In this document: piece by piece, positions 6,076 through 43,241 of the stretch | Layout: each line of letters begins with the position of its first letter | How positions within the stretch are numbered: position 1 is the first letter of the stretch | Assembly (NCBI GenBank): GCA_963663165.1 | Contig: OY760175.1 | Coordinates: 4,256,001 to 4,320,000, forward strand | Length of the DNA stretch: 64,000 nt | Reading direction: 5' to 3' | DNA from: an uncultured Desulfospira sp. | GTDB taxonomy: Bacteria; Desulfobacterota; Desulfobacteria; Desulfobacterales; Desulfobacteraceae | Position numbers and translations under genes: made by a program | Notes under the pieces: generated by a model | What the model was told of the DNA's origin: nothing | The model's database searches: none | The model's input: the letters and a program-made list of their open reading frames with translations, nothing else

Positions 6076-7734
6076 GTGGAATCTTCAGGATTTGATTTTG
6101 ATTACATTGTCATCGGGTCTGGGTTTGGCGGCAGCGTATCGGCCTTGAGACTGTCCCAGAAAGGGTACAAGGTCGCCGTTATTGAATCGGGCAGACAATG
6201 GAAGAATACGGATTTTGCAAAGACCAACTGGAACCTGCGCAAATATCTGTGGATGCCGAAAATTTTCCTTTACGGCATCCAGCGCATGACCCTTTTAAAC
6301 GATGTGTTTATTCTCGGGGGTGCCGGTGTCGGCGGGGGCAGCTTAAATTACGCCAATACCCTTTATGTGCCGCCGGACGCTTTTTTTGAACATGATACGG
6401 TGAAGCGGCTGGGCGGCAAAAAAGGGCTGCTGCCCTATTACCGGATCGCCCAAAAAATGCTCGGGGCAACGGAGAATCAATATATCGGCGAATCCGATCG
6501 TCTCATGCTAAAAACCGCCGATGCATTCGACCGGGGCCATACCTTTCAAAAAACCCAGGTCGGGGTTTATTTCGGGCAGGAAGGCAAAACAGCCAAAGAC
6601 CCTTATTTTTTCGGGCAGGGACCGGACCGGACAGGATGTGAGCTTTGCGGGGCCTGCATGACCGGCTGCCCCAAGGATGCCAAAAACAGCCTGGATAAAA
6701 ATTATCTGTTTTTTGCCCAAAAATTCGGGGCGCAAATCATCCCGGAAAACAAGGTAACGGATATCCGCCCCCTTTCAGAGGACGGCGCCGGCGGGTATGT
6801 GGTCACCTCTGTTAAAACAACGGCCCTGTTGGGCCGGAAGACAGCCTTTAAAACCAGGGGCATTGTGGTGTCCGCCGGGGTGATGGGCACCCTTTCTTTG
6901 CTGCTCAAACTTAAGGAAAACGGGCGGCTGCCCCGCCTGTCCGGGGATTTGGGAAAAATTGTCCGGACCAACAGTGAGGCCATTCTCGGGGCAAAGGCCA
7001 AATCCCGGGATGTGGATTTTTCAAAAGGGGTGGCCATTACCTCCAGTGTTCATCCCGACGAAAACACCCATATGGAGCCGGTCCGGTATGCTGCGGGAAA
7101 CGATTTCATGGGCCTGTTGATTGTGCTGTTGACCGACGGCGGAGGAAACATTCCCCGGATGGTCCGGTACTTTTTGAATGTTCTTCGCCATCCGGTTCAG
7201 TTTATTCGTCTTTTAAACCCCCTGGGGTTTGCCCGCAGAACCCTGATTATCCTGGTCATGCAGACCCATGACAATTACCTGAATGTGTTCAGAAAGCGGC
7301 GCTTTTTCTGGCCTTTTGAAAAAAGCCTGACCTCGGTGCAGGCCAGTGTCAGAAAAAATCCTGTCTATATTCCCATTGCCAATAAATTTGCCCGGATTCT
7401 GGCCAAAAAGATGAACGGGATCCCGGCCGGGATCGTTACCGAAGTGTACATGAATGCGCCCATTACCGCCCACATCATGGGCGGTTGCAGCCTTCACAAA
7501 GAGCCGGGACGGGGCATGATTGACGAGAAAAATCATGTCAGGGGATATCAGAATATGCTCATTGCCGATGCGTCCATGATCCCGGAGAACCTCGGGGTGA
7601 ACCCGGCCCTGTCCATCACGGCGTTATCGGAACGGGCCATGTCCTTTATCCCGGTCAAGCCGTCAAAGACCATAAGATATTTAAAGGCCGATCACGCCTG
7701 GGGCATTGCCCCCTATCTTGAGGTTGAAGGCTGA
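6076..7734 (+). CDS. GMC-family FAD oxidoreductase (cholesterol oxidase-like)
   Basis: GSGFGGS FAD motif, GVGGGSL, CxxCGxCxxGC, AHIMGG and C-terminal GVNPALSITALSERA. Confidence 0.88.
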   Translation: MESSGFDFDYIVIGSGFGGSVSALRLSQKGYKVAVIESGRQWKNTDFAKTNWNLRKYLWMPKIFLYGIQRMTLLNDVFILGGAGVGGGSLNYANTLYVPPDAFFEHDTVKRLGGKKGLLPYYRIAQKMLGATENQYIGESDRLMLKTADAFDRGHTFQKTQVGVYFGQEGKTAKDPYFFGQGPDRTGCELCGACMTGCPKDAKNSLDKNYLFFAQKFGAQIIPENKVTDIRPLSEDGAGGYVVTSVKTTALLGRKTAFKTRGIVVSAGVMGTLSLLLKLKENGRLPRLSGDLGKIVRTNSEAILGAKAKSRDVDFSKGVAITSSVHPDENTHMEPVRYAAGNDFMGLLIVLLTDGGGNIPRMVRYFLNVLRHPVQFIRLLNPLGFARRTLIILVMQTHDNYLNVFRKRRFFWPFEKSLTSVQASVRKNPVYIPIANKFARILAKKMNGIPAGIVTEVYMNAPITAHIMGGCSLHKEPGRGMIDEKNHVRGYQNMLIADASMIPENLGVNPALSITALSERAMSFIPVKPSKTIRYLKADHAWGIAPYLEVEG

Positions 7735-10422: not shown

Positions 10423-12090
10423 ATGATCAAGATTTCAGTTGAACCCATCGGCATAACCATTGAGGCAGAAGACGAACAACCCCTTATGGCATCCCTGGCC
10501 AAAGCCGGGATCAGAATCGAGGCACCCTGCGGGGGCAACCAGATTTGCGGGGCCTGCCGGCTGTGGGTTATGTCCGGCAAGGTCCCTGCCACACCCCACG
10601 AAAATATCGGCCCGGAAGATGAAAAAAAAGGGCTGCGGCTGGCGTGTATGGCAGTTCCCGAAGGGGATGTCACCATCCGTCTGGAGAATAACTTTGCCTA
10701 TGATAAACAGAACATGGACCAGGGCCGGATCCTTGGACAAACCCTTAAATCCGGGAATGGAATAAGCAATCCGGCAGTAAAAATAGACCAGGGACCCAAT
10801 GGATTTCAACTATGGTACGATAATCAGGCTGAGCCTGCGGCCCTGGAGAGCTGGCAGCCCGGTGACAGGCCCACGGGCCTTGCTATTGATATCGGCACCA
10901 CCACCATGGTCATTTCCCTGGTGTCGTTAAATACCGGGGCCGTCCTCTCCTCTGCTTCCCGTTTGAATCCCCAGGTCGCCCACGGCCATGATGTCCTCAC
11001 CCGGATCAATTACGCCAATACCCCTGAAAAGATAGACGAAATGGGGGATCTGGTGCAGCAAAAGCTCAATGCCATGCTCAAAGAGGCCTGTGCCGCCGCC
11101 GGCATCAGGCCCCGGGAGATTATCGATGTGGCCATCGGCGCCAATACCACCATGCTTCAGATGGCCGCCAAAATGGACTGCGCCGCCATTGGCAGGGCCC
11201 CGTTTGTTTTTGACATCAAAGGGGGGGAAAGCTTCAGCGCGGCCAAATGGGGACTTAATGTGAACAGGGCGGCCAGGGTCTATCTGCCGCCGGTAATGCA
11301 CGCCTTTGTGGGAACGGACATCACGGCGGGCCTGTTGTTGTGGCCGGATTTTTTTGATGAAGACAAGTCTGTTTTATATCTGGACATGGGCACCAACGGC
11401 GAACTTTGCCTGAATGTAAAGGGAAACCGGTTTACCACCTCCACGGCTGCCGGCCCCGCTTTTGAGGGCATGGGCCTGTCCACGGGCATGCGGGCCACGG
11501 ACGGGGCCGTGGAAAAGGTCGTGTGCCGGGAGGGGTGGTTTGCATTTGAAACCATTGGTGACGGACCCGCCAAAGGGATCTGCGGCAGCGGTATTATTGA
11601 TTTTCTGGCCGTGCTGCTGGACTCCGGGTATCTGGAGCCCAGCGGCCGGTTTTCAAAACCCGGGTCCGACGATATTTATATTTTGGAGGATGAAGACCAG
11701 GTTAAGTTCAAATACGGGCAGGACCTGTATCTGACCCAGAAAGATATCCGGCAGATCCAGCTGGCCAAAGGGGCCGTGAGAACCGGTATTGATCTAATTC
11801 TGGAGGCCGGGGGCATCACGGCCGGGGACCTGGATAAAATTTTTATCGCGGGGGGATTCGGCAATTATCTTCGCCCGGCCCACATGGAAAGAATCGGCCT
11901 GATTCCCCCTGACACCGCCACAAAAATTTTCTTTTGCGGAAACGCCTCCATAGACGGCAGCACCGCCCTTCTGGCCGATAAAGAAACCCGCACCTTTATC
12001 GAAAAAGGCTTAAAAACGATGACCTACGTGGAACTGGCCAGCCAGCCCAAGTTTATGAAGCATTTTGTCAACAGCCTTCAATTTCCATAG
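10423..12090 (+). CDS. ASKHA-type ATP-dependent reductive activator of corrinoid proteins (RACo/DUF4445) with N-terminal 2Fe-2S domain
   Basis: CGGNQICGAC...RLAC ferredoxin motif; DIGTTT, DMGTNGE, AAGPAFEG, GICGSG, IAGGFG; start placed at MIKISVEP. Confidence 0.92.
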   Translation: MIKISVEPIGITIEAEDEQPLMASLAKAGIRIEAPCGGNQICGACRLWVMSGKVPATPHENIGPEDEKKGLRLACMAVPEGDVTIRLENNFAYDKQNMDQGRILGQTLKSGNGISNPAVKIDQGPNGFQLWYDNQAEPAALESWQPGDRPTGLAIDIGTTTMVISLVSLNTGAVLSSASRLNPQVAHGHDVLTRINYANTPEKIDEMGDLVQQKLNAMLKEACAAAGIRPREIIDVAIGANTTMLQMAAKMDCAAIGRAPFVFDIKGGESFSAAKWGLNVNRAARVYLPPVMHAFVGTDITAGLLLWPDFFDEDKSVLYLDMGTNGELCLNVKGNRFTTSTAAGPAFEGMGLSTGMRATDGAVEKVVCREGWFAFETIGDGPAKGICGSGIIDFLAVLLDSGYLEPSGRFSKPGSDDIYILEDEDQVKFKYGQDLYLTQKDIRQIQLAKGAVRTGIDLILEAGGITAGDLDKIFIAGGFGNYLRPAHMERIGLIPPDTATKIFFCGNASIDGSTALLADKETRTFIEKGLKTMTYVELASQPKFMKHFVNSLQFP

Positions 12091-12096
12091 GGATAT

Positions 12097-12163
12097 AGTC
12101 TGAAGGCGGTTAGGCTGAAGGGTTGCACGATCCTAAGTCCCTTCAGCCTTCAGTCTAAACCCC
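12097..12163. repeat. CTGAAG-family palindromic repeat between convergent genes
   Basis: TAGTCTGAAGGCGGTTAGGCTGAAGGG...CCCTTCAGCCTTCAGTCTAAA. Confidence 0.8.
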
Positions 12164-12166
12164 TTT

Positions 12167-13138
12167 TTACTTAACTGCCGCAATCATGGCCTTGATATTA
12201 TCCATGGGCGCGTTGGGCGGGACGTCACATCCGGTGCTGAGGATAAAATTTTCTTTTCCCTGCATGGCATCCAGCAGCTCCCGGCACCGGTGCTTAACCG
12301 AGTCGGCATCCCCAAAGGTCACCACGGAAACCGGATCAACATTGCCGATCAGCACCGTATCATGTTGCAATGACTGATGCGCATTGGGAAAATTCACCTG
12401 TTTGTCCAGACTAAGGGCGTCCGGGCCTGTTTTTTCCATTTCCGCGATCAAGTGGCTGGTATCCCCGCAGATGTGCAGGATGCTGATCTGTTTAATCCCT
12501 TCTCTAATAATGTGTTGACAATACCGGCCGGAGAATTCCTCAAACTGAACGGGTGATATCATCATGGCGGAAGGTTCAAGGATGCAGATCAGGTCTGCCC
12601 CGGCATTTTCCAGCAACCTGATATAGTCCATAATCACCCGGCTCGCATATGAAAGAAGCTGGTGAAGCATGTCCGGGTTTTTCCGTGTCGCTTTCATGAC
12701 ACGGTTGATGCCCATGATTTCACAGGCTAAGGTAAAGGGGCCGATTACATATGACCCCACAGGGATATCCAGTTCTTTTTTCACCCCGGCCGCAACTTCG
12801 GCAAAAAGAGGCATTCTGCCGCCGGTGACTTTGTTCTCAAAGATTTCTTCGACATGGTCTGCATCCTCCAGCAGCCCTTTGGCCACGGCCGGCGGATCAT
12901 TATCGGAAATTTTTAATTCACACCCCAGGAATTGGGCCTCCACGGTCAGGTCCATCATGGTGAACAGGGCATCGGGCCTTGTCTCTGCCCCAAGGGCCAG
13001 TAACGCGTTAATTTGTGCCTGAGGATCAAAAAGCGCTTCTTTAATCGAGACCCCTGTCAGCTGGATTCCGGGAAATCCCATAAGGGGGATAACAGGGGTA
13101 CGGTCAAAATTATTCATAAATATTTTAAGGGGATTCAC
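12167..13138 (-). CDS. MtaA/CmuA-family (URO-D fold) corrinoid-dependent methyltransferase
   Basis: DLTVEAQFLG, GPFTLA, Zn motif LHICG, GNVDP, ILSTGCD. Confidence 0.88.
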   Translation of the reverse strand: MNPLKIFMNNFDRTPVIPLMGFPGIQLTGVSIKEALFDPQAQINALLALGAETRPDALFTMMDLTVEAQFLGCELKISDNDPPAVAKGLLEDADHVEEIFENKVTGGRMPLFAEVAAGVKKELDIPVGSYVIGPFTLACEIMGINRVMKATRKNPDMLHQLLSYASRVIMDYIRLLENAGADLICILEPSAMMISPVQFEEFSGRYCQHIIREGIKQISILHICGDTSHLIAEMEKTGPDALSLDKQVNFPNAHQSLQHDTVLIGNVDPVSVVTFGDADSVKHRCRELLDAMQGKENFILSTGCDVPPNAPMDNIKAMIAAVK

Positions 13139-13155
13139 TTAAAGCTCTCCTTTTT

Positions 13156-13809
13156 CTACGCAGACTTCAGTGAAAGGATGCGCTCGGCTTCCGTTACGGC
13201 AGACACCGCATCGGCAGCATAGCCGTCCGCACCGAATTTTTCGGCGATTTCTTTGGTAACCGGCGCCCCCCCGACCATGACCAGAACGTTGGGGTCGCAG
13301 GATTTGAGCATGGGGATTAGCTTTTCTATGGCCATCATGGTAGTGGTCATTAATGTGGAAACAGCGATAATATCCGCCCCGATGCGCTGGTGTTCCTCCA
13401 CAAAACGGGCCATGGGAACGTCTTCACCCAAATCATGCACCTTGAAACCGTTGGCGTTCAGCATCAGTTTGACCAGGTTCTTCCCAATGGCGTGGATATC
13501 CCCTTCTACCGTGCCCAGAATAACGTTTCCCTTGGACTGGGTTTCCATGGTTTTGGTGATGTGCGGGCGCAACACCTTTAATCCCTCTTCCATGGCATCG
13601 GCGCACAGCAGGACCTCGGGAACAAAATATTCCTGGCGCTTGAATAATTCCCCGGCCTTGGCCATGCCCTGGGCCAGCCCGTTTAAAATGGCTTCTGTCA
13701 CATCAATATTGTTTTCTATGACTTCATTGGCTGCCATGCGCGCATCGTCTTCTTCGAATTTGAGTACGGCCTCGCTGAGTTTTGCAAAAATTTCCTGTTT
13801 GGATGCCAT
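13156..13809 (-). CDS. Corrinoid (B12-binding) methyltransferase cognate protein
   Basis: Cap domain YFVPEVL, GDIHAIGKNLV (DxHxxG), SxL, VGGAP. Confidence 0.93.
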   Translation of the reverse strand: MASKQEIFAKLSEAVLKFEEDDARMAANEVIENNIDVTEAILNGLAQGMAKAGELFKRQEYFVPEVLLCADAMEEGLKVLRPHITKTMETQSKGNVILGTVEGDIHAIGKNLVKLMLNANGFKVHDLGEDVPMARFVEEHQRIGADIIAVSTLMTTTMMAIEKLIPMLKSCDPNVLVMVGGAPVTKEIAEKFGADGYAADAVSAVTEAERILSLKSA

Positions 13810-13835
13810 TGTTTAACTCCTCTAATCGTTACCGG

Positions 13836-14894
13836 TTAATACCATCCGAAATCATCCACAGCGCGTTTCATGGCCATGATATTGTCGGGGGGTGACTTGG
13901 GGGGCAATGCGCAGCCCGGAGCAAAGATAAATCCGTTGGCCAGGTTTTTGCCTTGTTCGATTATCCGTTTAGACGCCTGGTAAACCTCTTCTTCAGATCC
14001 GGATTGAATCAGGCTTGGGTCCAGATTGCCGATAATAATATCATTGGGAAAATATTCAGCGGCGCGGTCCAGATCAACTTCGTGGCCAAAGCTGACAAAG
14101 CCGGGATTCCCCATGGGGATGTTCTGCCAGTGGGGCAGATTCATGTTCTGCTCGCCGCAAATGTGTTTGAGCATGGTGGTAAAGCCCATCTCTATCAGCC
14201 GGTTGTGCAATCTTTGGGTATGGGGCAATGCAAAGGCTTCAAACATTTTAGGGGAAATCAGTTGATTGGATGCGGCCGGTTCACCGCCAAAGATCACTAT
14301 TTTCTCGGTCCCGAACAAGTCTTTGATATGCTGGGCCAGGCGTTCTAAAAACGTAACGGTTTTTTCCAGCAGCTGGTGGGCGGCCTCGGGCTGCCGGATC
14401 AGCCACCGTGAAAAAAGCGAAGCCCCGGCAATGTTGGATGCAAAGGTAAAAACCCCTTCAAGCTGGCACATCAGCCGCCAGGGTTTAATGTCATCGGTTT
14501 CGGACAGCACCTTCTGGTAAAATTCCATCTGCCGCGGCACCATCCCCGTCAAGGGAGATTCGGGAACTTCAAGCTCAAAGGCCTCTTCAGGGCATGTGAC
14601 CGGATGTTTCAGAACCGAGGGGGCCTGGGAAAATTCACCGTCCGGCCATTTGATTTCTCCGCCCATTTCCCACGCCCCCATGGAGGCGTATGCAAGGTAT
14701 GGCGTATAAAGCCAGCCGTATTGTGACGCGGTCTTGCGGTAATTTTCCAACGTGGTTGAAAAATCATTGTAGAGCGTCACGATGGGGTAGTTGTTGCTGA
14801 CCATGGCAAAGCCATTGCCGCCAAGTGCAAAAATGGGGACTTTATCAGGTTTGTGACCTGCCATTAATGCATTGATTCGTTCTGCATCGTTCAT
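13836..14894 (-). CDS. Second URO-D/MtaA-family methyltransferase
   Basis: KHICG, GNLDP, FAPGC; start MNDAER follows a GGAGG RBS. Confidence 0.85.
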   Translation of the reverse strand: MNDAERINALMAGHKPDKVPIFALGGNGFAMVSNNYPIVTLYNDFSTTLENYRKTASQYGWLYTPYLAYASMGAWEMGGEIKWPDGEFSQAPSVLKHPVTCPEEAFELEVPESPLTGMVPRQMEFYQKVLSETDDIKPWRLMCQLEGVFTFASNIAGASLFSRWLIRQPEAAHQLLEKTVTFLERLAQHIKDLFGTEKIVIFGGEPAASNQLISPKMFEAFALPHTQRLHNRLIEMGFTTMLKHICGEQNMNLPHWQNIPMGNPGFVSFGHEVDLDRAAEYFPNDIIIGNLDPSLIQSGSEEEVYQASKRIIEQGKNLANGFIFAPGCALPPKSPPDNIMAMKRAVDDFGWY

Positions 14895-14911
14895 GTATCC
14901 TCCTTGCATGA

Positions 14912-16150
14912 CTAAGTTGCGTTTAAGGTAGGCCAATCTATCATTGCGCTGAACGGGTCCCAGGACCGCGCCAAAGTGATTGCTTTTTTAATGCTTCCAA
15001 TATGTGTTAACCCGTTGATGAGGTTGGCACCGATTAACCGTTCGTCCTCAAATACCAGCAGGTTAAAACCGCTGTCGCTTTCAGGTTCTCCGGTTATGGA
15101 GACCTGGATGTTTTCCCCCTGGCGGTGGACATCCCCGATCTGGGCATAGGTCCAGTCAAAAAACGGGCTGACATGCTGGGGGACAAGCCCCGGATGAGAG
15201 GCCGTTTTTCCGGCCATATTGATGCCGGCGGTCCGGCCCTGGTAACAGGCATTTCCCCAGGTGCCAAGCCAGGCCTGTTGGCCGGTTTGCCGGTTGAGGC
15301 CCTGGCACACGTCTCCGGCCGCATAAAGCGTATCCATATTGGTCCGCATCTGATCGTTCACCAGAACGGCCTGGTCCACGGCCACCCGGCTTTTGTCCAG
15401 GAACTGGATATTGGGCCGGATCCCTGTGCAAACAGCCACAAAGTCGGCCTGCTCCATGACCTCATCGGGAAAAAAGCAGCAGACCCCTTCGTCGTCCTGT
15501 TCCATGCTTTCCATACTGCATCCGATACGGATTTCAATGCCCCGGCGTTGAAAATACGCTGCCAGCCGGGCCGCCGTTTCCGGATGGGCACCCCGGGGCA
15601 GCAGCTGGGATGCCACGTCCAGCAAAATAACCCTGGCACCTCGCCGGTGAAGGATTTCGGCAAGCTTGACCCCGACAAAAGAGGCCCCGAGGACAACGAC
15701 TTTCTTTGCGGTCTGCATGGCCTTTTCAATGGCCAGGGTGCTGTCGGCCGACCGCAGGACAAAGGCGCTGGAAGCGTCTTGCAGGCCGGGAACCGGTGGA
15801 ATGACGGGACTGGCACCGGTGGCGATGAGGCATTTGTCATAAGCCAGGGTGTTCCCATTTTTCATTTGCACCGACTGGTTCAAGGCATCCAGGTGTTCCA
15901 CCCCTGATCCAAAATGGCAGGTGACATCATAGCGCCGGTAAAAATCCGGGCCAAAGGGGAAACACTGCTTCCAGGACAACTTGCCTTTCAGGTAATAAGG
16001 CGCCAGCATGGGGTTAAAGGCCGGACCGTCCGTGTCCGACACCAGGTGAATCTCCCCCCCAAACCCGGCGGACCTGGCCCCCATGACGGCATGGGCGGCA
16101 GCGCCGCCGTTGCCCAGGATGGCGATTTGCTGGCTGGTGGTCCGTTTCAT
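14912..16150 (-). CDS. FAD-dependent NAD(P)H oxidoreductase (pyridine nucleotide-disulfide family)
   Basis: GNGGAA, YDKCLIATGA, GASFVG, YAAGDV. Confidence 0.88.
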   Translation of the reverse strand: MKRTTSQQIAILGNGGAAAHAVMGARSAGFGGEIHLVSDTDGPAFNPMLAPYYLKGKLSWKQCFPFGPDFYRRYDVTCHFGSGVEHLDALNQSVQMKNGNTLAYDKCLIATGASPVIPPVPGLQDASSAFVLRSADSTLAIEKAMQTAKKVVVLGASFVGVKLAEILHRRGARVILLDVASQLLPRGAHPETAARLAAYFQRRGIEIRIGCSMESMEQDDEGVCCFFPDEVMEQADFVAVCTGIRPNIQFLDKSRVAVDQAVLVNDQMRTNMDTLYAAGDVCQGLNRQTGQQAWLGTWGNACYQGRTAGINMAGKTASHPGLVPQHVSPFFDWTYAQIGDVHRQGENIQVSITGEPESDSGFNLLVFEDERLIGANLINGLTHIGSIKKAITLARSWDPFSAMIDWPTLNAT

Positions 16151-16680
16151 TTTAACCCGCCGTCCTGGCTTTTCAAAAAGCTTTTGAGTATGTTCACTGA
16201 CGCCTCGCTGGTTCTTTGGGCCGCAATGTCGTCGGTATAGCCGAACTGCAAGGCCCCGGTGGTGCAGGTTCGCACACAGGCCGGGTCCAGTCCGTTTTCA
16301 ATGCGTGTAATGCAAAGATCACATTTAATCATTCTGCCGTCTCCGGCAAATTTAGGCGCGCCAAAGGGACAGGCCAGTTCACAGCTGTGGCAGCCGATAC
16401 AAAGGTCCCGGTCAATGTCCACCACCCCGGTCTCAGAATGCCTGAAAATAGCCCCCGTAGGACAGACCATCAGGCAGGGCGCATCCCCGCAGTGCATGCA
16501 GGAAAGCGAAATATGGGCCACCGTGGCCGGATAGTCCCCCTGTTCCAGGCCGGTCACCTGGCGCAGGGCCGTATCCGGCGCTTTAAAATCGTTCTGGTCC
16601 CGGCAGGCCACCACACAGGCCATACAGCCCGAACAATGTTGCGCATTAAACGTGAAGGCCAGTGTTTTATTTGTAACCAT
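16147..16680 (-). CDS. 4x[4Fe-4S] electron-transfer subunit (DmsB/NrfC-like)
   Basis: CSGCMACVVAC, CMHCGDAPCLMVCP, CIGCHSCELACP, KCDLC...PACVRTC. Confidence 0.92.
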   Translation of the reverse strand: MVTNKTLAFTFNAQHCSGCMACVVACRDQNDFKAPDTALRQVTGLEQGDYPATVAHISLSCMHCGDAPCLMVCPTGAIFRHSETGVVDIDRDLCIGCHSCELACPFGAPKFAGDGRMIKCDLCITRIENGLDPACVRTCTTGALQFGYTDDIAAQRTSEASVNILKSFLKSQDGGLK

Positions 16681-16695
16681 ATGTATCCTTTCCCT

Positions 16696-18831
16696 TTAAG
16701 CCTTTTTGATTTCACAGAGCAGCGATTTAAATCCGGGGAATCCTGAAATCGGGTCCAGGTAATCCGGGTCAATCATCTGGTTGACCTCAATTTCCGGCCA
16801 GCCGTGAAACATGTTCACCAGCCCGGGGCCAAGGGTTGCCGTGATTTGGGCCTTAACGGCAACCTGTCCGCGATGGGTCGATAAAATAACATCATCATTA
16901 TTGCCAATCCCCCTTTGCGCGGCATCTTCCGGGTTCATCAGCACGGTGGGATGCGGGAGAAGGGAGCGGTCCCACGCATTTCTGAAGGTCCGGGAATGCA
17001 CGTACATGGGGACCCGGATCCCGGTCCCCAGGACCAGGGGAAATTTTTGGGCCGCTTCAGGGGCGGACACCGGGCTTAAGGCCGGTTCCTGATAAACCGG
17101 CAGGGGATCTAAGCCCGCTTCTTTCAAATCAGTGGATGTAAATTCCATTTTGCCGCTGGGCGTGGGAAATCCGTTGGTTTCATATTTTCGAAAGGGGGGA
17201 TTTTCCAGGTTTTCCACGGTCAAGCCGGCCGGATGCTGTTTGAGCTGTTCCAAGGTGAGGCCTGAAGGTTCAAGAATCCAGTCCAGACAGGCTTCATAGC
17301 CCTGGCTCATGAGGGGATCATCCGGTGCAATCCGCCGGGCCAGATCAAAAATAATGTCGCTGTCCGGTTTGGACTGGCCAAGGGGCTCAATGGCCGGTTG
17401 GGTATAAATCACATGGTTTCCCGGGTAAATCCGCAACTCACTGCGCTCAAAGGAAGTGCAGGCGGGCAGCAGGATATCGGCCTGTCTGGCCGTATCGGTC
17501 ATGAAAAGATCAACGTTGACGAACAGATCCAGCTGGTCAAGGCCGGCCAGCAGGGCATCGTTTCCCGGCCACATGCGCTGATTGTACCCAAATGCCACCA
17601 GGGCACGAATGGGATACGGTTTGCCGCTGGCCAACTGTTCCGGCAACGCCATGGCCTGGGCCTCATTGACCATCCGGCACCAGAGGGGAAATTGTTCCTG
17701 TCCTACCCGGGGGGGCAGTTCATCCAATGGTTTTGGAAAGATAAATTCGCGCTGCCGGGTTGGAATGGCTGTGGATACATGAAGCCAGGATTCGGGCATG
17801 ACATAATTGCCGCCGGGAACATCATAGTTGCCGGTCAGGCCGGAAAGGCAGATAATGGCCCGATGGTTCTGTACGCCGTTGGTATGGTGAACCGTCGGGC
17901 TTGCACTGGTCATGATGGATCCTGCCCGGGCCCCGGCAAACAGGCGGGCGGCTGCCACAATCTTTTCTGCCGGCACCCCGGTGATCGCCTGGGTTCGTTC
18001 CGGTGTGAACTCCTGTACCAGGGCTTTGTATTCATCAAATCCCAGGGTCCACCTGGAAATAAAATCTTTATCAAACCGGTTTTCCCGGATAATGACATGG
18101 GCCATGCCCAGGGCCAGTGCGCCGTCGGTTCCCGGGCGCAGTCCAAGCCGGATGTCCGCATACCGGGTCTGGTGGGTGACAACCGGGCTGACCTCAATAA
18201 TTTTCAACCCCCTTTTCCGGGCAGCGATGAGTTTTTTGGCCCCGGGCGTTGAGGAATTAAACGCATTTTTACTCCACAGCATCAGACAGTCGGAATGTTT
18301 AACATCCGGGCCGCCCCAGCGGCCATAGGTCAGCTTGGCCGCAATGACCGTGGCATAAAAGCAGGTGCTGGATTCGGTGGCAAAATTGGGCGTCCCGAAA
18401 CTGATGCCCAACCGCTGGGCAAAGGGGCGCAGCCATTTGGTATACCCGACCCCGAACACCACGGACTCAGGGCCGGATTCCGCCTTAATGGAAAGCAGTT
18501 TGCCGGCTATTTCCGAATATGCCTCTTCCCAGCTGATGGCTTTAAACCGGCCGCTGCCCCGGGGACCGGTCCGTTTCATTGGCGCCATCAGGCGGTCTTT
18601 GTTGTAGATATACTGCCGGCTGGCCGCCCCTTTTGAACACAAGGTGCCCCGGTTCTGGGGAAAAGAGCCCATGCCTTCAACCTTAATGACCTTTCCGTCT
18701 TTGACATAGGCATTGATGCCGCAGCTGGACGAGCCGCTTTCGCAAATGGCACAGATGGTTTTTTTTATTTCGATACCGGTTTCCTTGCAGGGTATCTTAT
18801 TTATTTCCAGGCGTTGAAGATCTGTCAGCAT
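16696..18831 (-). CDS. Cytoplasmic molybdo/tungsto-bisPGD oxidoreductase catalytic subunit (DMSO reductase superfamily)
   Basis: N-terminal CAIC-x6-C...LCSKG Fe-S motif, RPGTDGALALG, ADILLPA, C-terminal dinucleotide-binding domain; no Tat RR signal. Confidence 0.92.
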   Translation of the reverse strand: MLTDLQRLEINKIPCKETGIEIKKTICAICESGSSSCGINAYVKDGKVIKVEGMGSFPQNRGTLCSKGAASRQYIYNKDRLMAPMKRTGPRGSGRFKAISWEEAYSEIAGKLLSIKAESGPESVVFGVGYTKWLRPFAQRLGISFGTPNFATESSTCFYATVIAAKLTYGRWGGPDVKHSDCLMLWSKNAFNSSTPGAKKLIAARKRGLKIIEVSPVVTHQTRYADIRLGLRPGTDGALALGMAHVIIRENRFDKDFISRWTLGFDEYKALVQEFTPERTQAITGVPAEKIVAAARLFAGARAGSIMTSASPTVHHTNGVQNHRAIICLSGLTGNYDVPGGNYVMPESWLHVSTAIPTRQREFIFPKPLDELPPRVGQEQFPLWCRMVNEAQAMALPEQLASGKPYPIRALVAFGYNQRMWPGNDALLAGLDQLDLFVNVDLFMTDTARQADILLPACTSFERSELRIYPGNHVIYTQPAIEPLGQSKPDSDIIFDLARRIAPDDPLMSQGYEACLDWILEPSGLTLEQLKQHPAGLTVENLENPPFRKYETNGFPTPSGKMEFTSTDLKEAGLDPLPVYQEPALSPVSAPEAAQKFPLVLGTGIRVPMYVHSRTFRNAWDRSLLPHPTVLMNPEDAAQRGIGNNDDVILSTHRGQVAVKAQITATLGPGLVNMFHGWPEIEVNQMIDPDYLDPISGFPGFKSLLCEIKKA

Positions 18832-18880
18832 TAAATTTGGATTCCTTAACTCATTGAAGGTTTCAATTATAACGGTTTGT

Positions 18881-19630
18881 TTACCACATGGTTAAAAACG
18901 GTTTGCCGTCTGAAATGGCATACAGCCGTTCATTGGAGCCGCGGATATGGGCTTCGGTATATTTAATCAGCCGGTCTAAATCGTTTTTCTTTAAAAGATG
19001 AATAAACTCCAGATGCTCCTGTGCAATGATGGCTGACATGGTGATGTCTGCGGTTGTTTCAACAATCATGTTAAGAAGGTCCAAAACAGACGCATAAGCC
19101 ATTTTGAGTATGGGGTTGCCCCCGATGTCGGCCAAATGCTGGTGAAAAATAAAGTTCTGTTTGTGGGCCACCGTTCCCTGCTCAATGAGATCCATGGATT
19201 TTTGGGCACATTGTTCAAGAATTTCGATATCTGCCGGTTTTACCCGCTGATGGACAAGTTCAATGATGTCTTTTTCAAGAAACAGCCGGGCTTCGGTCAT
19301 ATCTTCAAGTTTAATCCGGCCAAGCCCCATCAGATTATTCAACGCCTGGGTCAGCGGCCGGTGGGACGGCTCCCGGATAACGGCCCCGCCGTTGGCACCT
19401 TTTGAAATATCCACAATATCAAGCGTGTTCAGGATCTGGTATGCCTGACGAACGGTATTGCGGCTCACCTTAACCTGCTGGGCAAGTTCCCGCTCCGTGG
19501 GCAGCCGGTCACCAATTTTTAACTCACCGTTAAAAATTTTTTTCCGAAGCTGGTCAACGATGAACTCAAAGGTGTTTTTAATTTTAATCGGTTCGTATTC
19601 AATCTTTGTACTGGACAAGGTTCTTTCCAA
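18881..19630 (-). CDS. GntR/FadR-family transcriptional regulator
   Basis: GDRLPTERELAQQVKVSRNTVRQA wHTH plus FCD domain (FHQHLA..GNP). Confidence 0.9.
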   Translation of the reverse strand: MERTLSSTKIEYEPIKIKNTFEFIVDQLRKKIFNGELKIGDRLPTERELAQQVKVSRNTVRQAYQILNTLDIVDISKGANGGAVIREPSHRPLTQALNNLMGLGRIKLEDMTEARLFLEKDIIELVHQRVKPADIEILEQCAQKSMDLIEQGTVAHKQNFIFHQHLADIGGNPILKMAYASVLDLLNMIVETTADITMSAIIAQEHLEFIHLLKKNDLDRLIKYTEAHIRGSNERLYAISDGKPFLTMW

Positions 19631-19881
19631 AATTATCTGTGTTAAGCCCTGTTTTATTCCGCCGAGCGCCGCAATAGATCATCATCAGAAAAGGAAAAGG
19701 GCGGCTATCTGGGTTAGGGTGAATGGGTCACCCAATTGTCGTTTACACATAGAAGCCGGTTTGTGTCAAGCGCAAATTTTATTAAAGATTCAATAAATTA
19801 TTTCAAATGCCGGTTTGAATACAATGCTTGCTTATATGATGTGTATAACAGGTGCCTATAACGTATGCCGGTGTTAGAGCG

Positions 19882-20807: not shown

Positions 20808-21395
20808 ATGCTATCAGAAGTTCTAAAAAGCGAAAGTCTTTTTTGGAATCTATACAAAATAGATCTGGCAACAGCCGAACGTTATAGACAGATGAAGTGC
20901 CCCCACTGCCAGGGACCGTTGTATTATGCCAATTATCTGCGCAAACCCAGGGGGGAGCCTGAAGGGTTGTCTGAAGAATGTTTTTTACAATTCAGTTTAT
21001 GCTGCGGAAGGGAAGGCTGCCGACGGCGTTTGATCCCGCCAACCTGCCGTTTCCTTGGTAAAAACATTTACTGGTATGCGGCCATTCTGACGATTGTGTC
21101 CGACTGGCAGAACCAATCTGTAGGTATCACGATGTCCAGGTTTGCTGAAACAATCGGTATCTCCCGCAACACCCTTAGACGCTGGGTCGGTTTGTTTAAA
21201 GAAATATTTCCAACAAGCGCTCAATGGAAGAAAATCCGGGGCCGAGTGCCTGCAAGCGTGAAAAATGACAGTCTTCCGGCAAGTTTGGTCAACTTCTATC
21301 TGCATCAACAGGCATCCATCAAAGAAACGTTGATCTCCTGTTTGTCATTCTTGTCTCAAGGCAATGAAATATCACAAAAAATAAGGGCCGGGTAA
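20808..21395 (+). CDS. Transposon ORF1: Zn-ribbon plus HTH protein (DUF6431-like)
   Basis: CPHC...CCGREGCRRR and GISRNTLRRW. Confidence 0.7.
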   Translation: MLSEVLKSESLFWNLYKIDLATAERYRQMKCPHCQGPLYYANYLRKPRGEPEGLSEECFLQFSLCCGREGCRRRLIPPTCRFLGKNIYWYAAILTIVSDWQNQSVGITMSRFAETIGISRNTLRRWVGLFKEIFPTSAQWKKIRGRVPASVKNDSLPASLVNFYLHQQASIKETLISCLSFLSQGNEISQKIRAG

Positions 21396-21510
21396 TCTCA
21401 CGCAGAAGATGGGCGTGGCCTTGGGCGATCAACTGTTCTATCAAAGGGGCCGGGATTTTTATCAGCATTCCGCTGAAAATTTTAACTTAAAATTGAAAGG
21501 ACCCCGGCCT

Positions 21511-22956
21511 ATGAACAGTAAAAACCAAAGTCCGGTTGATAAATGGGCTTTGTTTCGCTTCTCAGTCGTTGGTGGTTTGCTGGCAAATCCGCCGGCCAAG
21601 GGTGAGCTGCGTAAGGAACTGGAAAAGCTTTCCAATCAGATTTACACCCATCCCATCACGAACGAATCGACGGTATTTCATTTTTCAACTATTGAAAGCT
21701 GGTATTACAAGGCAAAAAATGCCCAGGACCCCATCATTGCTTTAGGACGGAAAGTTCGTTCAGACTATGGCGGTTCAATTGTATTCACGCCTGAACTGAT
21801 CCGGATGCTGGGCAGACAATACCGGACCTATCCGAACTGGAGCTACAAACTGCACGCAGATAATTTCGCAGCAGAACTTCAAGAAAAAGCCAATTCAGTA
21901 TCGATACCATCCTATGCCAGTGTCCGGCGGCGGATGGTCGAAAGAGGGTGGACCAGGAAACCCTCAGCCAAGAAAAAACAGACAGCGGGCATGAAAACTG
22001 CCGCAACGCGGTTCGAAAGCCATGAGATCCGTGGATATGAAGCAGAATGTGTTCACAGCCTGTGGCATCTGGATTTTCATGAAGGCAGTCTGCGGGTGGT
22101 GGATAACAACGGTAACTGGTATACGCCCAAAGCCTTATGTATTCTTGACGACCACTCCCGCCTGTGCTGCCACATCCAATGGTATTCAGGAGAAACCACC
22201 CAGGATTTGATTCATGGATTGACCCAGGCCTTTTTCAAAAGGGGGCTTCCCAGGGCACTGATGACGGACAACGGATCTGCCATGACCTCCCATGAGTTTT
22301 GCAACGGGCTTAAGAAAACAGGGATACTTCATGAAACGACATTGCCCTACAGCCCTTATCAAAACGGTAAGCAGGAAGCCTTTTGGGGCACCCTTGAAGG
22401 CAGATTGATGGCCATGCTGACCCGGGTGGACCCTCTGACACTGGAATATCTCAATCACCGCAGTCAGGCTTGGGTCGAGATGGAATATAACAAAACCAGG
22501 CATAGTGACATCGGCACATCTCCTGTTCAACGCATGCTTGAAGGCAAAGATGTTTCCCGGCCGGCACCGGATGAAGAACAATTACGTTTCGCCTTTACAG
22601 TTTGCGAAGTCAGAAATCAGCGCAAGTCTGACGGTACCGTGTCCATCAACGGGGTAAGATTTGAGATCCCTTCCCGGTTTCACCATATCCCTCGGTTACA
22701 TGTCTGCTTTGCCAATTGGGATAAATCCATGGCCTGGCTCATGGACCAGAGAACCGGCAAACAGATTGCGCCGATCTACCCCCAAGACAAAATCAAAAAT
22801 GCTTCAGGAAAACGAAAGATCAAGTCGAGACCTGAACATACCATTCTACCGGATGAAACATTGAAAGAATCCGAGCCTGCATTATTAAGAAAACTGATGG
22901 CCGAGTATGCCCAAAGCGGCATGCCCCCAGCCTATCTGCCCAAAGGAGAATCATGA
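21511..22956 (+). CDS. DDE (rve/IS481/Mu-like) transposase
   Basis: WHLD, LDDHSR, TDNGSA, PYQNGKQE, YN..RHS, RKSDGTVSING; RBS before ATG 21511. Confidence 0.92.
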   Translation: MNSKNQSPVDKWALFRFSVVGGLLANPPAKGELRKELEKLSNQIYTHPITNESTVFHFSTIESWYYKAKNAQDPIIALGRKVRSDYGGSIVFTPELIRMLGRQYRTYPNWSYKLHADNFAAELQEKANSVSIPSYASVRRRMVERGWTRKPSAKKKQTAGMKTAATRFESHEIRGYEAECVHSLWHLDFHEGSLRVVDNNGNWYTPKALCILDDHSRLCCHIQWYSGETTQDLIHGLTQAFFKRGLPRALMTDNGSAMTSHEFCNGLKKTGILHETTLPYSPYQNGKQEAFWGTLEGRLMAMLTRVDPLTLEYLNHRSQAWVEMEYNKTRHSDIGTSPVQRMLEGKDVSRPAPDEEQLRFAFTVCEVRNQRKSDGTVSINGVRFEIPSRFHHIPRLHVCFANWDKSMAWLMDQRTGKQIAPIYPQDKIKNASGKRKIKSRPEHTILPDETLKESEPALLRKLMAEYAQSGMPPAYLPKGES

Positions 22957-23780
22957 ACAACAAACAGCTTCTGGCTTATTACGGCCTTAAATGGAATCCT
23001 TTTTTGTCCAATATCCCCGTGGAGGCTTTATGGCATCCGCCATTGATGAACAGTTTTATTTTTCGTCTTGAGAATATGACCCTGAACGGGGGCTTTGCTT
23101 TGATCAGCGGGGACCCTGGCCTTGGCAAATCCAAGGCGTTGCAGATGATTGCCCAAAAGTTCGGTAAACTTGACGAGGTAGTTGTCGGGGTAATGGAACG
23201 TCCCCAAAGCAGTGTCGGAGACTTTTACCGGGAAATGGGAGTTTTGTTTGGTGTCAATTTAAGCCCTGCCAACCGGTATGGCGGGTTCAAGGATCTTCGG
23301 GAGCGCTGGAGGCATCATGTAAAAACCACCTTGTTCCGGCCCATCCTGCTCATAGATGAAGCCCAGGAGATGCTGACCGGATGCTTAAATGAACTGCGTT
23401 TGTTGAACAGCGCGGACTTTGACTCCCAAAACCTGTTGACCACCGTGATTTGCGGCGATGACCGGCTCCCGGAACGGTTCAGATCAAGATCCCTGGTATC
23501 GCTGGGAAGCCGGATGCAGTTCCGGTTGACGCTGCTTCCCTATGTCCGGGATGACCTGCTGGATTACATGGATCACAGCCTGAACCAGGCCGGCGCCCCG
23601 CACTTAATGACGAAAACTCTGATCAGGACCCTTGCAGACCATTGCGCCGGCAACCTGCGGGTTCTTAACAGTATGGCCGCAGACCTGCTGGCTGCGGGGA
23701 TTGAGAAAGAACTCAATCAATTGGACGAAAAACTTTTTATGGAAGTCTATTCCAGACAGCCGCCCAATAAAAAATCATAG
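22953..23780 (+). CDS. ExeA/TniB/MuB-like AAA+ ATPase
   Basis: YGLKWNPF, Walker A GDPGLGKS, Walker B LLIDEAQ, GNLR; ATGA-coupled to the transposase. Confidence 0.88.
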   Translation: MNNKQLLAYYGLKWNPFLSNIPVEALWHPPLMNSFIFRLENMTLNGGFALISGDPGLGKSKALQMIAQKFGKLDEVVVGVMERPQSSVGDFYREMGVLFGVNLSPANRYGGFKDLRERWRHHVKTTLFRPILLIDEAQEMLTGCLNELRLLNSADFDSQNLLTTVICGDDRLPERFRSRSLVSLGSRMQFRLTLLPYVRDDLLDYMDHSLNQAGAPHLMTKTLIRTLADHCAGNLRVLNSMAADLLAAGIEKELNQLDEKLFMEVYSRQPPNKKS

Positions 23781-23789
23781 GAGAACAAT

Positions 23790-23972
23790 ATGGGTATTTA
23801 TGATGATCCGGACATGAAACTGGAAGAAATTACACAGGAATTGGAACATTTTATCCTGGATATGGTCCTTGCCGGACTTGAAAACTTGAATATGGAATAT
23901 CGGGCCTTCAGGCAATTCCAGAAACAAAGGCTCACGGAAAAGAACCGTCATAAAGAACACGAGCCGTTTTAA
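23790..23972 (+). CDS. Small hypothetical protein of the transposon
   Basis: AGGAG RBS; 60 aa; co-oriented between the ATPase and the primase. Confidence 0.55.
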   Translation: MGIYDDPDMKLEEITQELEHFILDMVLAGLENLNMEYRAFRQFQKQRLTEKNRHKEHEPF

Positions 23973-24009
23973 ACGTACGCCCGGACTCTAAAGGTCCGGG
24001 CCTGCCTCA

Positions 24010-24798
24010 ATGGAAAAAATACTATGGAAAATCGGCAATTATTTTAAGCACCGCTTCAGCCTGGCAGTTCTTGATGAAATTAAGGGCCGGTGGCCCGTTC
24101 TCCCCTCTTGTAAAAACATCCCTTATCTTAAAGCTGAAAATGCCGGAGGAAGGCACATCCTGATCAGACCTGATCCTGTTATTGAGCCTTATTATTTTCT
24201 TGCCGACGATTTAAACATTGACCTGCTTATCCGGCATCATCAATCCATATCAAACCGCTTTAAACCAGGCAGGATGGTTATGGAAACATCTCCCGGCAAT
24301 TATCAAATTTGGATTCACAGTGACCGTCCGTTAAGCCTTCCCGAAAAAAAGTATTGGTTGGAAAACATGCACAGTGATCCCGGCGCCGACCCGAAAAACA
24401 GGTGGGGCAGATGCCCCGGGTTCAGGAACAGAAAAGCAAAACATAGAACGCCTTCAGGACAATACCCTTTGGCAAAGCTATTATGGGTGGACTGGAAATG
24501 CCAGGCTATTGTCCCTGAAATAGAATTATCCTCCCGACCTCAAGAAGTCTTTTCCCATCAACCCCGGGGGGGAGTGTGCCATAACGGTAATATTTCCCGC
24601 TCCCTCTATGATAAGGGTGACGAATCTGCCACTGATTTTGCATATGCTCTGGCCCTCTATAGAAGAGGTTTTTCACGAATGGAAATTTACAATCGCATTA
24701 TCAATGAAAGGCAGGATTGGATTAATCATGCGGATGAACGAAAAAAAACACAGTATCTGATCAGGACATTACAAAAAGCTGAAAAAATTATCAGTTAA
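24010..24798 (+). CDS. RepB-type (RSF1010 RepB'-like, AEP superfamily) DNA primase
   Basis: LADDL, ETSPGNYQIW, DPGAD...GRCPGFRNRK and C-terminal helical motif DESATDFAYALAL..G. Confidence 0.8.
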   Translation: MEKILWKIGNYFKHRFSLAVLDEIKGRWPVLPSCKNIPYLKAENAGGRHILIRPDPVIEPYYFLADDLNIDLLIRHHQSISNRFKPGRMVMETSPGNYQIWIHSDRPLSLPEKKYWLENMHSDPGADPKNRWGRCPGFRNRKAKHRTPSGQYPLAKLLWVDWKCQAIVPEIELSSRPQEVFSHQPRGGVCHNGNISRSLYDKGDESATDFAYALALYRRGFSRMEIYNRIINERQDWINHADERKKTQYLIRTLQKAEKIIS

Positions 24799-29403: not shown

Positions 29404-30027
29404 GCAATGGCTCCTGCAACAATCGACTGTACAGCTCCGCAGAACTTGTTAAAACTCAAAGAGCGGTTTTGATTGATATCCATACACCGGGCAACCTGTC
29501 TTGCACACTCTGCTTTGCGCAGCCCCCCTGCAAAATAAACCGGCCCGTTTTAAAATTCGTTCCAGGGCTTCCCAGGTGCCGCCCTGGATATTGTCGGGGT
29601 CCCGATAGGTCGCTTTTCCCGGAATGTTTTTGGGAACCTTGGGATACGCTGTTTTAACTGCGGCCCAGTCCCCGAAGTACCAGGATTCAAGCTCCTCGAT
29701 CACAATGCGGTTGGTCACCTTGAAATTTTCACCGGCCCGGGCGCATGATCTGGTTAAAAACCCGGCGTCCCTGGCATACTGCTCCAGCTGCTGTTTCAAA
29801 ATCATGCAGTCATCATCGTCCCGGTCCACCAGCACCAGGATCGACCAGGTGTCGGGCATCCATGCGCTATATCCTTTCAGCCGTGATGGCAGCTGTTTTA
29901 ACAGATCATCCTTGCACTGGAACCGGATAATCTGATGTTCAGCCCCATCCAGCATGCTGGGCAGCAGGATATCCAGAGCCGCTTCCATGGAATACTCCTC
30001 CACAAAAACGATCAGTTTCTCCAGCAT
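29400..30027 (-). pseudogene. DUF4276-like (TOPRIM-like) protein with a +1 frameshift near 29538
   Basis: VFVEEYS, VDRDDDD, EELESWYFGD. Removing one T restores GYFAGGLRKAECARQVARCMDINQNRSLSF and a TGA overlapping the pglZ ATG. Confidence 0.72.
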
Positions 30028-35005: not shown

Positions 35006-35619
35006 ATCCCGTGTGTATCGAAAAGCGTTTGAATCTGATCTGTGTTGATCCGCACTCCTGTTTTTTGAAAAACAGATTTGGCCAACTGTTTCAAATCCAA
35101 ACCGGGTTTCTGGATAAATACCACGAGGATCTGTACAGCCAACTCCGCCGGCAGGGGTGTATATTCCGTTTGAAGGGCTTTTTCCTGAACATCGGCTTTG
35201 ACAGGATCGATGGCCAGGTACACATAGGAACTGCCGTGCTTTTGTCTTTGCAGCTGCCCCTTGCGGTATAATTGAACCAGAACGGCATGGCAGCGGCACC
35301 GAAGCAACTGCCCCAGTTGATCGGCTGTCATCCCCGATGTGCTTTTCTCGACCAGATTCACCAGCGTATGGGTAAGCGGGCCATGTCTTGAAAAACCGAT
35401 ATCCCGGTAAAACCAAAGACCCTTGCTGCTGAAACGGGGTATCGAGGCCAGGGTGTACCATTTCCCATTGTGGGAAAAACTGCTGAAGTAACCGGTTTTG
35501 GCCAGGAATCGCCGAACTGAAGGGATGGAGTAGTTCATTCGCTCGGCCAGTGGTTGGATCATCCAGCATTTGTTTTCCTGAAAGGCTGAAATCAGCTTCA
35601 GGTCTGGTGTTTTGTCCAT
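34990..35619 (-). CDS. IS orfA, putative DNA-binding protein
   Basis: GGAGG RBS before MDKTPDL; ends GIKKKA* on an A9G run. Confidence 0.7.
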   Translation of the reverse strand: MDKTPDLKLISAFQENKCWMIQPLAERMNYSIPSVRRFLAKTGYFSSFSHNGKWYTLASIPRFSSKGLWFYRDIGFSRHGPLTHTLVNLVEKSTSGMTADQLGQLLRCRCHAVLVQLYRKGQLQRQKHGSSYVYLAIDPVKADVQEKALQTEYTPLPAELAVQILVVFIQKPGLDLKQLAKSVFQKTGVRINTDQIQTLFDTHGIKKKA

Positions 35620-43218: not shown

Positions 43219-43241
43219 AGCAGGTTCCTGTTTTTTTAGTA

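Follow-up and report, generated by a model that had tools for sequence, protein, structure and literature searches.

Gene order and integrity of the locus

In a 64,000-nucleotide stretch of DNA from an uncultured Desulfospira sp. (contig OY760175.1; hereafter the window), genes for a molybdenum or tungsten (Mo/W) enzyme and for a corrinoid-dependent methyl-transfer system lie together between positions 10423 and 19630. Seven of the eight genes form a single run on the minus strand. It opens with gntR (18881..19630; PF00392 and PF07729), encoding a GntR/FCD regulator of the FadR type, and continues with mopB (16696..18831), the cytoplasmic catalytic subunit of a Mo/W-bis-pyranopterin guanine dinucleotide (bisPGD) enzyme from an uncharacterised family of the acetylene-hydratase-like superclade, fes (16147..16680), a DmsB-like 4Fe-4S electron-transfer subunit (PF13247; 146 bits against TIGR02951, cut-off 214), and fad (14912..16150), an AorC/PadH-like FAD/NAD(H) oxidoreductase subunit with a Pyr_redox_2 domain. 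The methyl-transfer half follows with mt1 (13836..14894; PF01208), a UroD-fold His-Cys-Cys methyltransferase, cp (13156..13809; PF02310 and PF02607), a B12-binding corrinoid methyl carrier with the DxHxxG motif (195.5 bits against TIGR02370, cut-off 215), and mt2 (12167..13138), an MtaA-like URO-D methyltransferase, also with His-Cys-Cys, whose best PDB match is 4ay7 (4e-28). The gaps between these seven genes are, in order, 49, 15, -4, 17, 26 and 17 bp. The eighth gene, raco (10423..12090, plus strand; PF14574, PF17651 and PF00111), is convergent with the run and encodes a RACo/AcsV-type reductive activator of corrinoid proteins with an N-terminal 2Fe-2S domain; a REP-like repeat, present in dozens of copies elsewhere in the genome, separates the ends of mt2 and raco (12096..12164). 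Domain and open reading frame (ORF) analysis agrees with an initial annotation of this DNA on the families, order and positions of all eight genes. The start of raco at 10423 agrees with that in a congener; the mt1 gene call stands as well, while its TTG start at 14936 gives way to an ATG at 14894 as the most likely one, with a Shine-Dalgarno motif (AGGAGG) and in agreement with the starts of homologues.

Compared with the congener, all eight genes are under purifying selection (dN/dS 0.07-0.21). A single contig assembled from sequencing run X1 covers 11486-18441 with zero differences; four of the seven listed runs, from two studies, were examined, and X1 is possibly the source sample. The operon is genuine and intact, and neither chance nor an artefact. 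The block is presumed to be cotranscribed. In the promoter region (19722..19769, minus strand) a TTGACA element (19764-19769) is followed just downstream by a palindromic operator candidate (19722-19738). A general scan for promoters and terminators was uninformative (12 sites of each kind, where 9.8 and 15.8 were expected), and no Rfam matches were found in the window.

The operator candidate is identical at 17/17 positions in the congener G001, in spite of diverged surrounding DNA, and at two other loci (L017 and L019) it recurs upstream of the orthologous gntR, with 2 and 3 mismatches. Genome-wide, only two other sites lie within 2 mismatches of it. GntR may therefore be expected to bind at this palindrome. 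Orthologues of gntR with 84%, 60% and 45% identity adjoin the Mo trio (mopB, fes and fad) in L018, L017 and L019, so that regulator and operator candidate travel with the Mo trio.

The same block is conserved in G001 with 84-93% identity, in the order gntR-mopB-fes-fad-dctP-dctQ-dctM-mt1-cp-mt2 and with a convergent raco. The additional dctPQM genes, for a tripartite ATP-independent periplasmic (TRAP) importer, were lost from the window copy by a clean 3.1-kb deletion. Alignment with G001 places the scar at 14900..14906 (minus strand), a 7-bp microhomology (CAAGGAG) that is the ribosome-binding site common to dctP and mt1, and the ribosome-binding site of Mt1 was left intact. The junction at 14900 was assembled without differences from X1 and also from runs X3 and X4 of the second study, in which a TRAP-containing allele was seen as well, as a loose end at 14906. 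The whole block occupies the same site as in G001 but in inverted orientation; no inverted repeats were found at its ends. The synonymous divergence of the eight genes is higher (median 0.55) than that of 48 other orthologue pairs drawn from five loci (0.31), which fits both halves moving as one unit.

Properties of the encoded proteins

MopB carries a single N-terminal Fe-S motif (C27, C30, C37 and C65) and is predicted to ligate its metal through Cys157, which is the counterpart of the ligand-loop Cys in 2e7z and 2vpw and is invariant in 27/27 close homologues. Its best solved relative is acetylene hydratase (2e7z), according to phmmer (4e-72), profile search (4e-88) and Foldseek (28% identity), and the second best by sequence is the polysulfide reductase PsrA (2vpw). 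The structure models are mediocre (pLDDT 68 and 71) and served for fold ranking only, not for reading the active site. Among the PDB matches listed for MopB there is no entry for the catechol dehydroxylases Dadh and Cldh. In acetylene hydratase an Asp adjacent to the second Fe-S Cys has a catalytic role; MopB has Glu31 at this place, where the wider family shows N, D, S, T, F and M.

No NCBIfam cut-off is reached by MopB. It scores 239.5 bits against TIGR02166 (DmsA; cut-off 777.7), 163.7 of 1017.6 against TIGR00509, 119.7 of 1465 against TIGR02164 and 292.4 of 694 against NF012032, taken as the test for PsrA/PhsA. The absence of a twin-arginine translocation (Tat) signal and of a membrane anchor, already noted in the initial annotation, is borne out: no product of the block has an RR motif or a hydrophobic 19-residue stretch above 1.6, and no anchor gene is present. 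By these features and the hidden Markov model (HMM) scores, MopB belongs neither to PsrA/PhsA nor to DmsA/DorA/TorA, and its Cys ligand sets it further apart from DmsA and TorA, which are Ser-ligated. Members of its own family, which share its motifs and are usually accompanied by the same Fe-S and flavoprotein partners, occur in Desulfobacterota, Bacillota, Planctomycetota and Actinomycetota. All 120 listed relatives with at least 57% identity are unnamed or have generic names, and a protein atlas likewise gave generic names only. A member with 45% identity is found in a cultured gut organism, Enterocloster asparagiformis (L027:3198-12717), behind genes for CdaR, PrpD and an opine dehydrogenase; this host offers a cultured organism in which the Mo family could be studied. 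The Fe-S and FAD/NAD partners of MopB point to a redox enzyme. The flavoprotein is most similar to AorC among PDB entries (8c0z_E, 8e-39) and to PadH among NCBIfam models (9e-67, below cut-off), both of which we take to be NAD+-reducing, that is, oxidative.

Both methyltransferases keep the HxC...C zinc motif, as had been noticed from the sequence alone, in alignment with MtaA 4ay7 (H244/C246/C328 and H222/C224/C304). The triad is invariant in 16/16 close Mt1 homologues and is kept in every Mt1-family row that covers these sites. MtaA 4ay7 is the best PDB match of Mt1 both by sequence and by fold, and Mt1 is nearer to it than to CdmB (3e-11 versus 8e-6). Neither enzyme reaches the cut-off of TIGR01463 (MtaA/CmuA; 235.4 bits, against 173.3 for Mt2 and 98.1 for Mt1), nor does Mt2 reach that of PRK06252 (194.5 of 244 bits). 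His-Cys-Cys has been reported as a mark of S- and Se-methyltransferases as opposed to O-methyltransferases, in which one or both Cys are replaced (PMC10418091). Its presence in both enzymes favours S/Se-methyl chemistry.

Both genomes, the source genome (G000, one contig) and G001, contain a second block, cp-mt2-TRAP-mt1, without MopB. It comprises cp, mt2, dctPQM, mt1 and a gene for an XRE-cupin regulator, and no Mo enzyme or activator (G000:C1:966917-972586, L013; and L087). Identity between the two blocks is 37% for Mt1, 63% for Mt2 and 71% for the corrinoid protein. As Mt1 is the most diverged, it is taken as the probable substrate-side enzyme, and Mt2 is presumed to act on the acceptor side, methylating a thiol. 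Heterodisulfide-reductase genes beside the paralogous block of G000 were considered as a further link and rejected, as they are not found there in G001.

An MttB gene or a gene for a pterin-binding methyltransferase had been reported to be missing, and none occurs in the block; genome-wide there are 0 matches to PF06253 and five to PF00809, the nearest about 0.5 Mb away, while MtaB was not searched genome-wide. The host of the source genome is a sulfate reducer with an acetyl-CoA synthase gene and selA. No match to the methionine synthase domains PF02574 or PF01717 was found in G000, which makes homocysteine a candidate methyl acceptor. PF02574 is also without a match in G001 and has three in the congener G002; it was not found in 12/25 genomes searched, so that its lack is not specific.

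The DctP binding protein of G001 is 53% identical to that of the second block, 27-30% identical to those beside close methyltransferase-free Mo trios and 35% identical to that of L104. It keeps an Arg that presumably serves as a carboxylate clamp, and the imported substrate is therefore probably an organic anion. Its nearest solved relatives, all distant, are 4n6d, 4nap/4pgn and 7nr2/7nra, which presumably bind acids of the indole or cinnamate type.

Linkage of the two halves

Among 42 loci of the Mt1 family, eight (the window, L018, L086, L111, L132, L134, L135 and L146) carry a Cys-type MopB in the same orientation no more than 5 kb away, and in four of these the distance is 40 bp at most. 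In this set, nine of 16 metagenome loci, all shorter than 3 kb, had been left out, and several that were kept have short flanks. The eight linked MopBs fall into four lineages with 24-36% mutual identity, beside Mt1 genes of separate branches (the mopB of L086 is split in two frames and was placed by BLAST). Besides the lineage of the window's MopB, three unrelated ones thus share operons with this methyltransferase family. A MopB gene is found near 1.4-3.6% of random genome positions, and 0/7 other UroD genes of the source genome have one within 27 kb. At L060 the nearest Mt1 gene is divergent from a Cys-type MopB. The MopB of L082, 4.9 kb from Mt1, was set aside as incidental, being 66% identical to a formate-dehydrogenase-type gene.

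Further carriers are suggested by ENA contigs. One contig size, 50,734 bp, is common to relatives of MopB, Mt1 and DctP at 76, 74 and 76% identity, and relatives of MopB and Mt1 at 71 and 61% share the sizes 826,381, 24,654 and 22,366 bp. There are seven exact size matches among 131 MopB and 158 Mt1 entries, three of them from the window's own cluster, against a jittered mean of 0.15. The operon is rare. A profile of Mt1 matched in 4/161 genomes of the family, closely only in G000 and G001; at 1e-60 or better Mt2 was found in 2/201 genomes, with two copies in each. With the top two candidates per genome scored, MopB at 1e-200 was found in 9/401 genomes of the order and 5/401 of the phylum. A metagenome scan returned mostly short contigs, and a plasmid search gave 11 records, all below 35% identity. 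In a FastTree phylogeny with weak inner support, linked MopBs are interleaved with unlinked ones. These comparisons show the Mo trio as a module in its own right, joined in some cases by one for methyl transfer. The block is a rare, selected operon, and the coupling of its halves is credible but unproven.

Several of these loci have features of their own. The parallel layout of L086, L111 and L146 is mopB-mt1-ABC(SsuA/NMT1-type)-mtaA-cp-raco. In L132 (5358-14683) an opine-dehydrogenase-like gene and, judged by eye, a bacterial microcompartment locus directly follow an operon of a short-chain dehydrogenase/reductase gene, mopB and mt1. A TRAP/TAXI importer, creatininase-family, MmgE/PrpD and FAD-linked oxidase genes and an Mt1-family UroD gene form a recurring cluster in L083, L085, L080 and L142-L144; it spans several families, contains a SAM methyltransferase gene in some, and represents an unexplained pathway. 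L091 (1640-18069) combines a UroD pair, a corrinoid protein, two MttB-family genes, urocanase, histidine ammonia-lyase and MopB with an Fe-S partner; as a guess, it may act on N-methylated derivatives of histidine, ergothioneine for instance.

Around the block itself, rve integrase, AAA ATPase and RepB-type primase genes (20808-24798) constitute a mobile element directly upstream of the gntR promoter, within an island (19.7-45.6 kb) that is not present at the same site in G001. The island holds a BREX system (24769-44589; BrxA, B, C, PglZ and BrxL) with PglX in three pieces (38979-39599, 35888-37519 and 31285-33141). Other ORFs lie between these pieces, among them one of 900 aa without a PADLOC match, and a HEC-01-like pair is found at 29449-31310 within the region. 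On the other side, the product of 6076-7734 is a GMC flavoprotein resembling cholesterol oxidase (634 bits against NF058674, cut-off 850), here in a strict anaerobe; it is conserved in G001.

A possible pathway for methylated sulfur anions

In its composition the block resembles mlp clusters (Kountz and Balskus, PMC10418091), which have at least two His-Cys-Cys UroD methyltransferases, a corrinoid protein as well as an activator of the Ram/RACE type, lack a folate methylase nearby and are proposed to perform S/Se-methyl chemistry. Here too, corrinoid protein and Ram/RACE activator are encoded within 2 kb, no tetrahydrofolate methylase gene lies within 20 kb, and the His-Cys-Cys zinc site is present. 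Identity to 4ay7, counted by hand on printed alignments, is about 26% for Mt2 and about 24% for Mt1, which makes Mt1 borderline under the mlp rule of more than 25%. The core genes are, however, not all transcribed in the same direction, the activator being convergent here and in G001, and the TRAP genes and the Mo trio stand within the block. In the available main text of the mlp paper the terms 'molybd', 'sulfoxide' and 'oxidoreductase' do not occur, nor do 'molybd', 'sulfoxide' and 'TRAP' in its available supplements; its genome list, as available, has 15 'Desulfo' rows, none of them Desulfospira.

A second likeness, in layout, is to MtpCAP-MsrH of Methanosarcina acetivorans. There MtpA, a UroD-type demethylase of 3-methylmercaptopropionate (MMPA), is encoded with a corrinoid protein, a transporter and a regulator (10.1101/548461; PMC7374477). 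MtsA/MtsB of M. barkeri likewise uses a UroD-type enzyme as a substrate-side S-demethylase, the role proposed here for Mt1. These systems differ in being archaeal, in having coenzyme M as acceptor and an MFS transporter, and in having no Mo enzyme; the layout is found in G001, with TRAP in place of MFS, while in the window the transporter is deleted. On the Mo side, acetylene hydratase and the catechol dehydroxylases share a cytoplasmic location, a Cys-ligated bis-PGD and one Fe-S cluster with MopB (PMC10100899), of which 2e7z is the closest solved structure, but identity to it is 28%, Glu replaces Asp, and Fe-S and FAD/NAD partners are present here. AorABC of Aromatoleum aromaticum (8c0z) has the same soluble layout of metalloenzyme, polyferredoxin and FAD/NAD subunit; its catalytic subunit belongs to the AOR family and is no MopB, and methyltransferases are absent there. 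DmsABC, DorA and TorA belong to the superfamily of MopB, and the window's Fe-S subunit is DmsB-like, whereas those enzymes are periplasmic, Tat-exported and quinol-linked. The aryl O-demethylases Odm, Vdm and Mtv differ in that a zinc-site Cys is replaced and a folate methylase is usual; both Cys are kept here. Since one defining feature of mlp clusters and every tested feature of DmsA/TorA, PsrA and the O-demethylases is missing, the block is filed under none of them. By analogy, it may be viewed as a soluble electron chain of the AOR style, with a catalytic subunit of the acetylene-hydratase clade, to which an mlp cluster or MtpCAP has been attached. No MopB-UroD-corrinoid operon was found in the titles and abstracts searched, which scarcely cover the subscription literature.

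That both halves serve one pathway for a methyl-S or methyl-Se compound seems fairly probable. More tentatively, and at less than even chances, the block may be one GntR-controlled catabolic unit for a methyl-S (possibly methyl-Se) organic anion, in which reduction precedes demethylation. The methyl-S/Se anion route is suggested by the His-Cys-Cys triad (PMC10418091) and the precedent of MtpA (10.1101/548461). The anion would enter through the TRAP importer, whose genes are seen in G001; in the window strain, where they are deleted, a paralogous TRAP elsewhere possibly stands in. The soluble FAD/NAD(H), 4Fe-4S and Mo/W trio would then use NADH to deoxygenate an S-oxide, for example a methylsulfinyl carboxylate. 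The Zn(His-Cys-Cys) site of Mt1 would bind the resulting thioether and methylate corrinoid Co(I), in line with the chemistry of its family, Mt2 would pass the methyl on, independently of folate, to a small thiol (for example sulfide or homocysteine), and RACo, in the established function of its family, would reactivate oxidised corrinoid. The simplest substrates would be the sulfoxides of 3-methylmercaptopropionate or of methionine hydroxy or keto acids. A Zn-thiolate site suits a thioether and not a sulfoxide, which could be the chemical reason for the repeated pairing. This requirement, the association of the regulator with the Mo trio and the SsuA-type sulfonate-binding ABC importer carried by one parallel lineage are the reasons for preferring reduction as the first step. 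The initial annotation had also placed demethylation after the Mo step; of that proposal, the S/Se-type triad and the pairing with MopB are borne out, DMSO and TMAO as substrates are not supported, and the NADH-driven direction is a candidate.

A number of observations weigh against the reduction-first unit. No characterised member of this MopB family was found, and among solved enzymes the nearest are acetylene hydratase and one that splits S-S bonds. The closest relatives of the flavoprotein, AorC and PadH, are oxidative, and the trio may work in either direction. By the DctP identities the TRAP importer goes with the methyltransferases and not with the Mo trio, and MopB is missing from the paralogous block of TRAP and methyltransferase genes. 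The initial annotation had made its proposal depend on the two trios being conserved together, and this holds in part. Both are kept in the congener and probably in two further lineages, the latter recognised indirectly, by matching contig sizes. Yet among 26 loci found through MopB (at least 45% identity; four contigs below 9 kb), 24 lack the methyltransferases and only the window and G001 carry them; at 70% identity or more they are carried by 2/6 loci, and an Mt1-family gene was found in 0/5 tested genomes with MopB and no methyltransferases. In the source genome 7/38 dctP genes have a MopB within 5 kb and 3/38 a Cys-type one; against this TRAP background the linkage of Mt1 is not significant, either for Cys-type MopB (9/42 versus 3/38, p=0.12) or for any MopB (10/42 versus 7/38, p=0.60).

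The order of steps could also be the reverse, a reading not far behind in likelihood although itself rather doubtful. A methylthio carboxylate would be imported and stripped of its methyl group, and the Mo trio would act on the freed thiol, either by reductive C-S cleavage to R-H and H2S, by analogy with the catechol dehydroxylases and Psr, or by NAD+-linked oxidation. The TRAP importers of the two methyltransferase blocks are orthologous and unrelated to those of methyltransferase-free Mo loci, as would be expected if the imported molecule were the methyltransferase substrate; this fits demethylation first better. Since the catechol dehydroxylases are the nearest relatives of acetylene hydratase (PMC7028382), cleavage of C-O, S-S or C-S bonds is as close by descent as reduction of an S-oxide, and other Mt1-family loci hold redox enzymes of a downstream type (FAD-linked oxidases, PrpD, DAO). 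No precedent was found for reductive desulfuration by this MopB clade, however, and such an order accords less well with a regulator and operator that follow the Mo trio or with the SsuA-type importer, which suggests an oxidised sulfur anion. It is unlikely that the halves are separable modules, with methyltransferases that salvage methyl groups, sulfur or selenium (for instance through homocysteine methylation or the release of selenide) and a Mo trio that handles an unrelated organic acid. Each half does exist alone in the source genome, linked MopBs are scattered among unlinked ones, and the enrichment over TRAP operons is not significant; selenium recycling or methionine salvage has been proposed for mlp clusters (PMC10418091), and the methionine synthase domains missing from G000 (both) and from G001 (PF02574) and the selA of G000 would fit. 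Against it stand the 15-26 bp spacing behind one promoter, a linkage that persists to about 70% divergence and was restored once TRAP had been deleted, the ribosome-binding site of Mt1 being preserved, and a pairing that recurs with four MopB lineages; the lack of PF02574 in 12/25 genomes takes weight from the salvage argument.

Quite improbable is O-demethylation of a methoxylated aromatic acid, with the methyl group passed to sulfide, followed by Mo-dependent ring dehydroxylation. O-demethylases belong to the UroD superfamily (PMC13222342), dehydroxylases are related to acetylene hydratase (PMC7028382), and the solved relatives of DctP would suit an aromatic acid if the assumed ligands are correct. 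But these relatives are distant, both methyltransferases keep His-Cys-Cys, Mt1 resembles MtaA more than CdmB, and the genome holds other UroD clusters with pterin methyltransferases. The substrates named in the initial annotation, dimethyl sulfoxide (DMSO) and trimethylamine N-oxide (TMAO), which would be reduced to dimethyl sulfide (DMS) or trimethylamine (TMA) and then demethylated, are highly improbable. MtsA-type UroD enzymes do demethylate DMS (10.1101/548461), and a small neutral molecule could do without the importer that the window copy lacks. MopB fails the DmsA/TorA tests, however, with its Cys ligand, no Tat signal, no anchor and 239 bits against the DmsA cut-off of 778, and is closest to acetylene hydratase and PsrA; the ancestral block has an importer whose DctP points to an organic anion, and no MttB for TMA is encoded in the genome.

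Under the reduction-first reading, the block is a compact, all-soluble bacterial candidate for a task for which the known enzymes, in the literature examined, are archaeal; the anoxic fate of methylthio acids such as MMPA has been described as poorly characterised (10.1101/548461). It links a widespread MopB family, for which no characterised member was found, to a class of substrates, its binding protein and regulator provide ligand targets that can be screened directly, and soluble proteins suffice to assay every step. It could further be imagined, as a doubtful generalization, that anaerobes have repeatedly built a route for oxidised methyl-S anions from an NADH-linked cytoplasmic S-oxide reductase of the acetylene-hydratase superclade and a folate-free methyl relay that leads from a thioether to a thiol. 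Its substrates might be methylsulfinyl carboxylates, methanesulfinate or their Se analogues, and the relay would release methanethiol or make methionine, in a genome where neither MetH nor MetE is detectable. If true, a large uncharacterised MopB family would thereby gain its first activity, and methylthio acids derived from dimethylsulfoniopropionate (DMSP) would have a bacterial sink in anoxic sediment.

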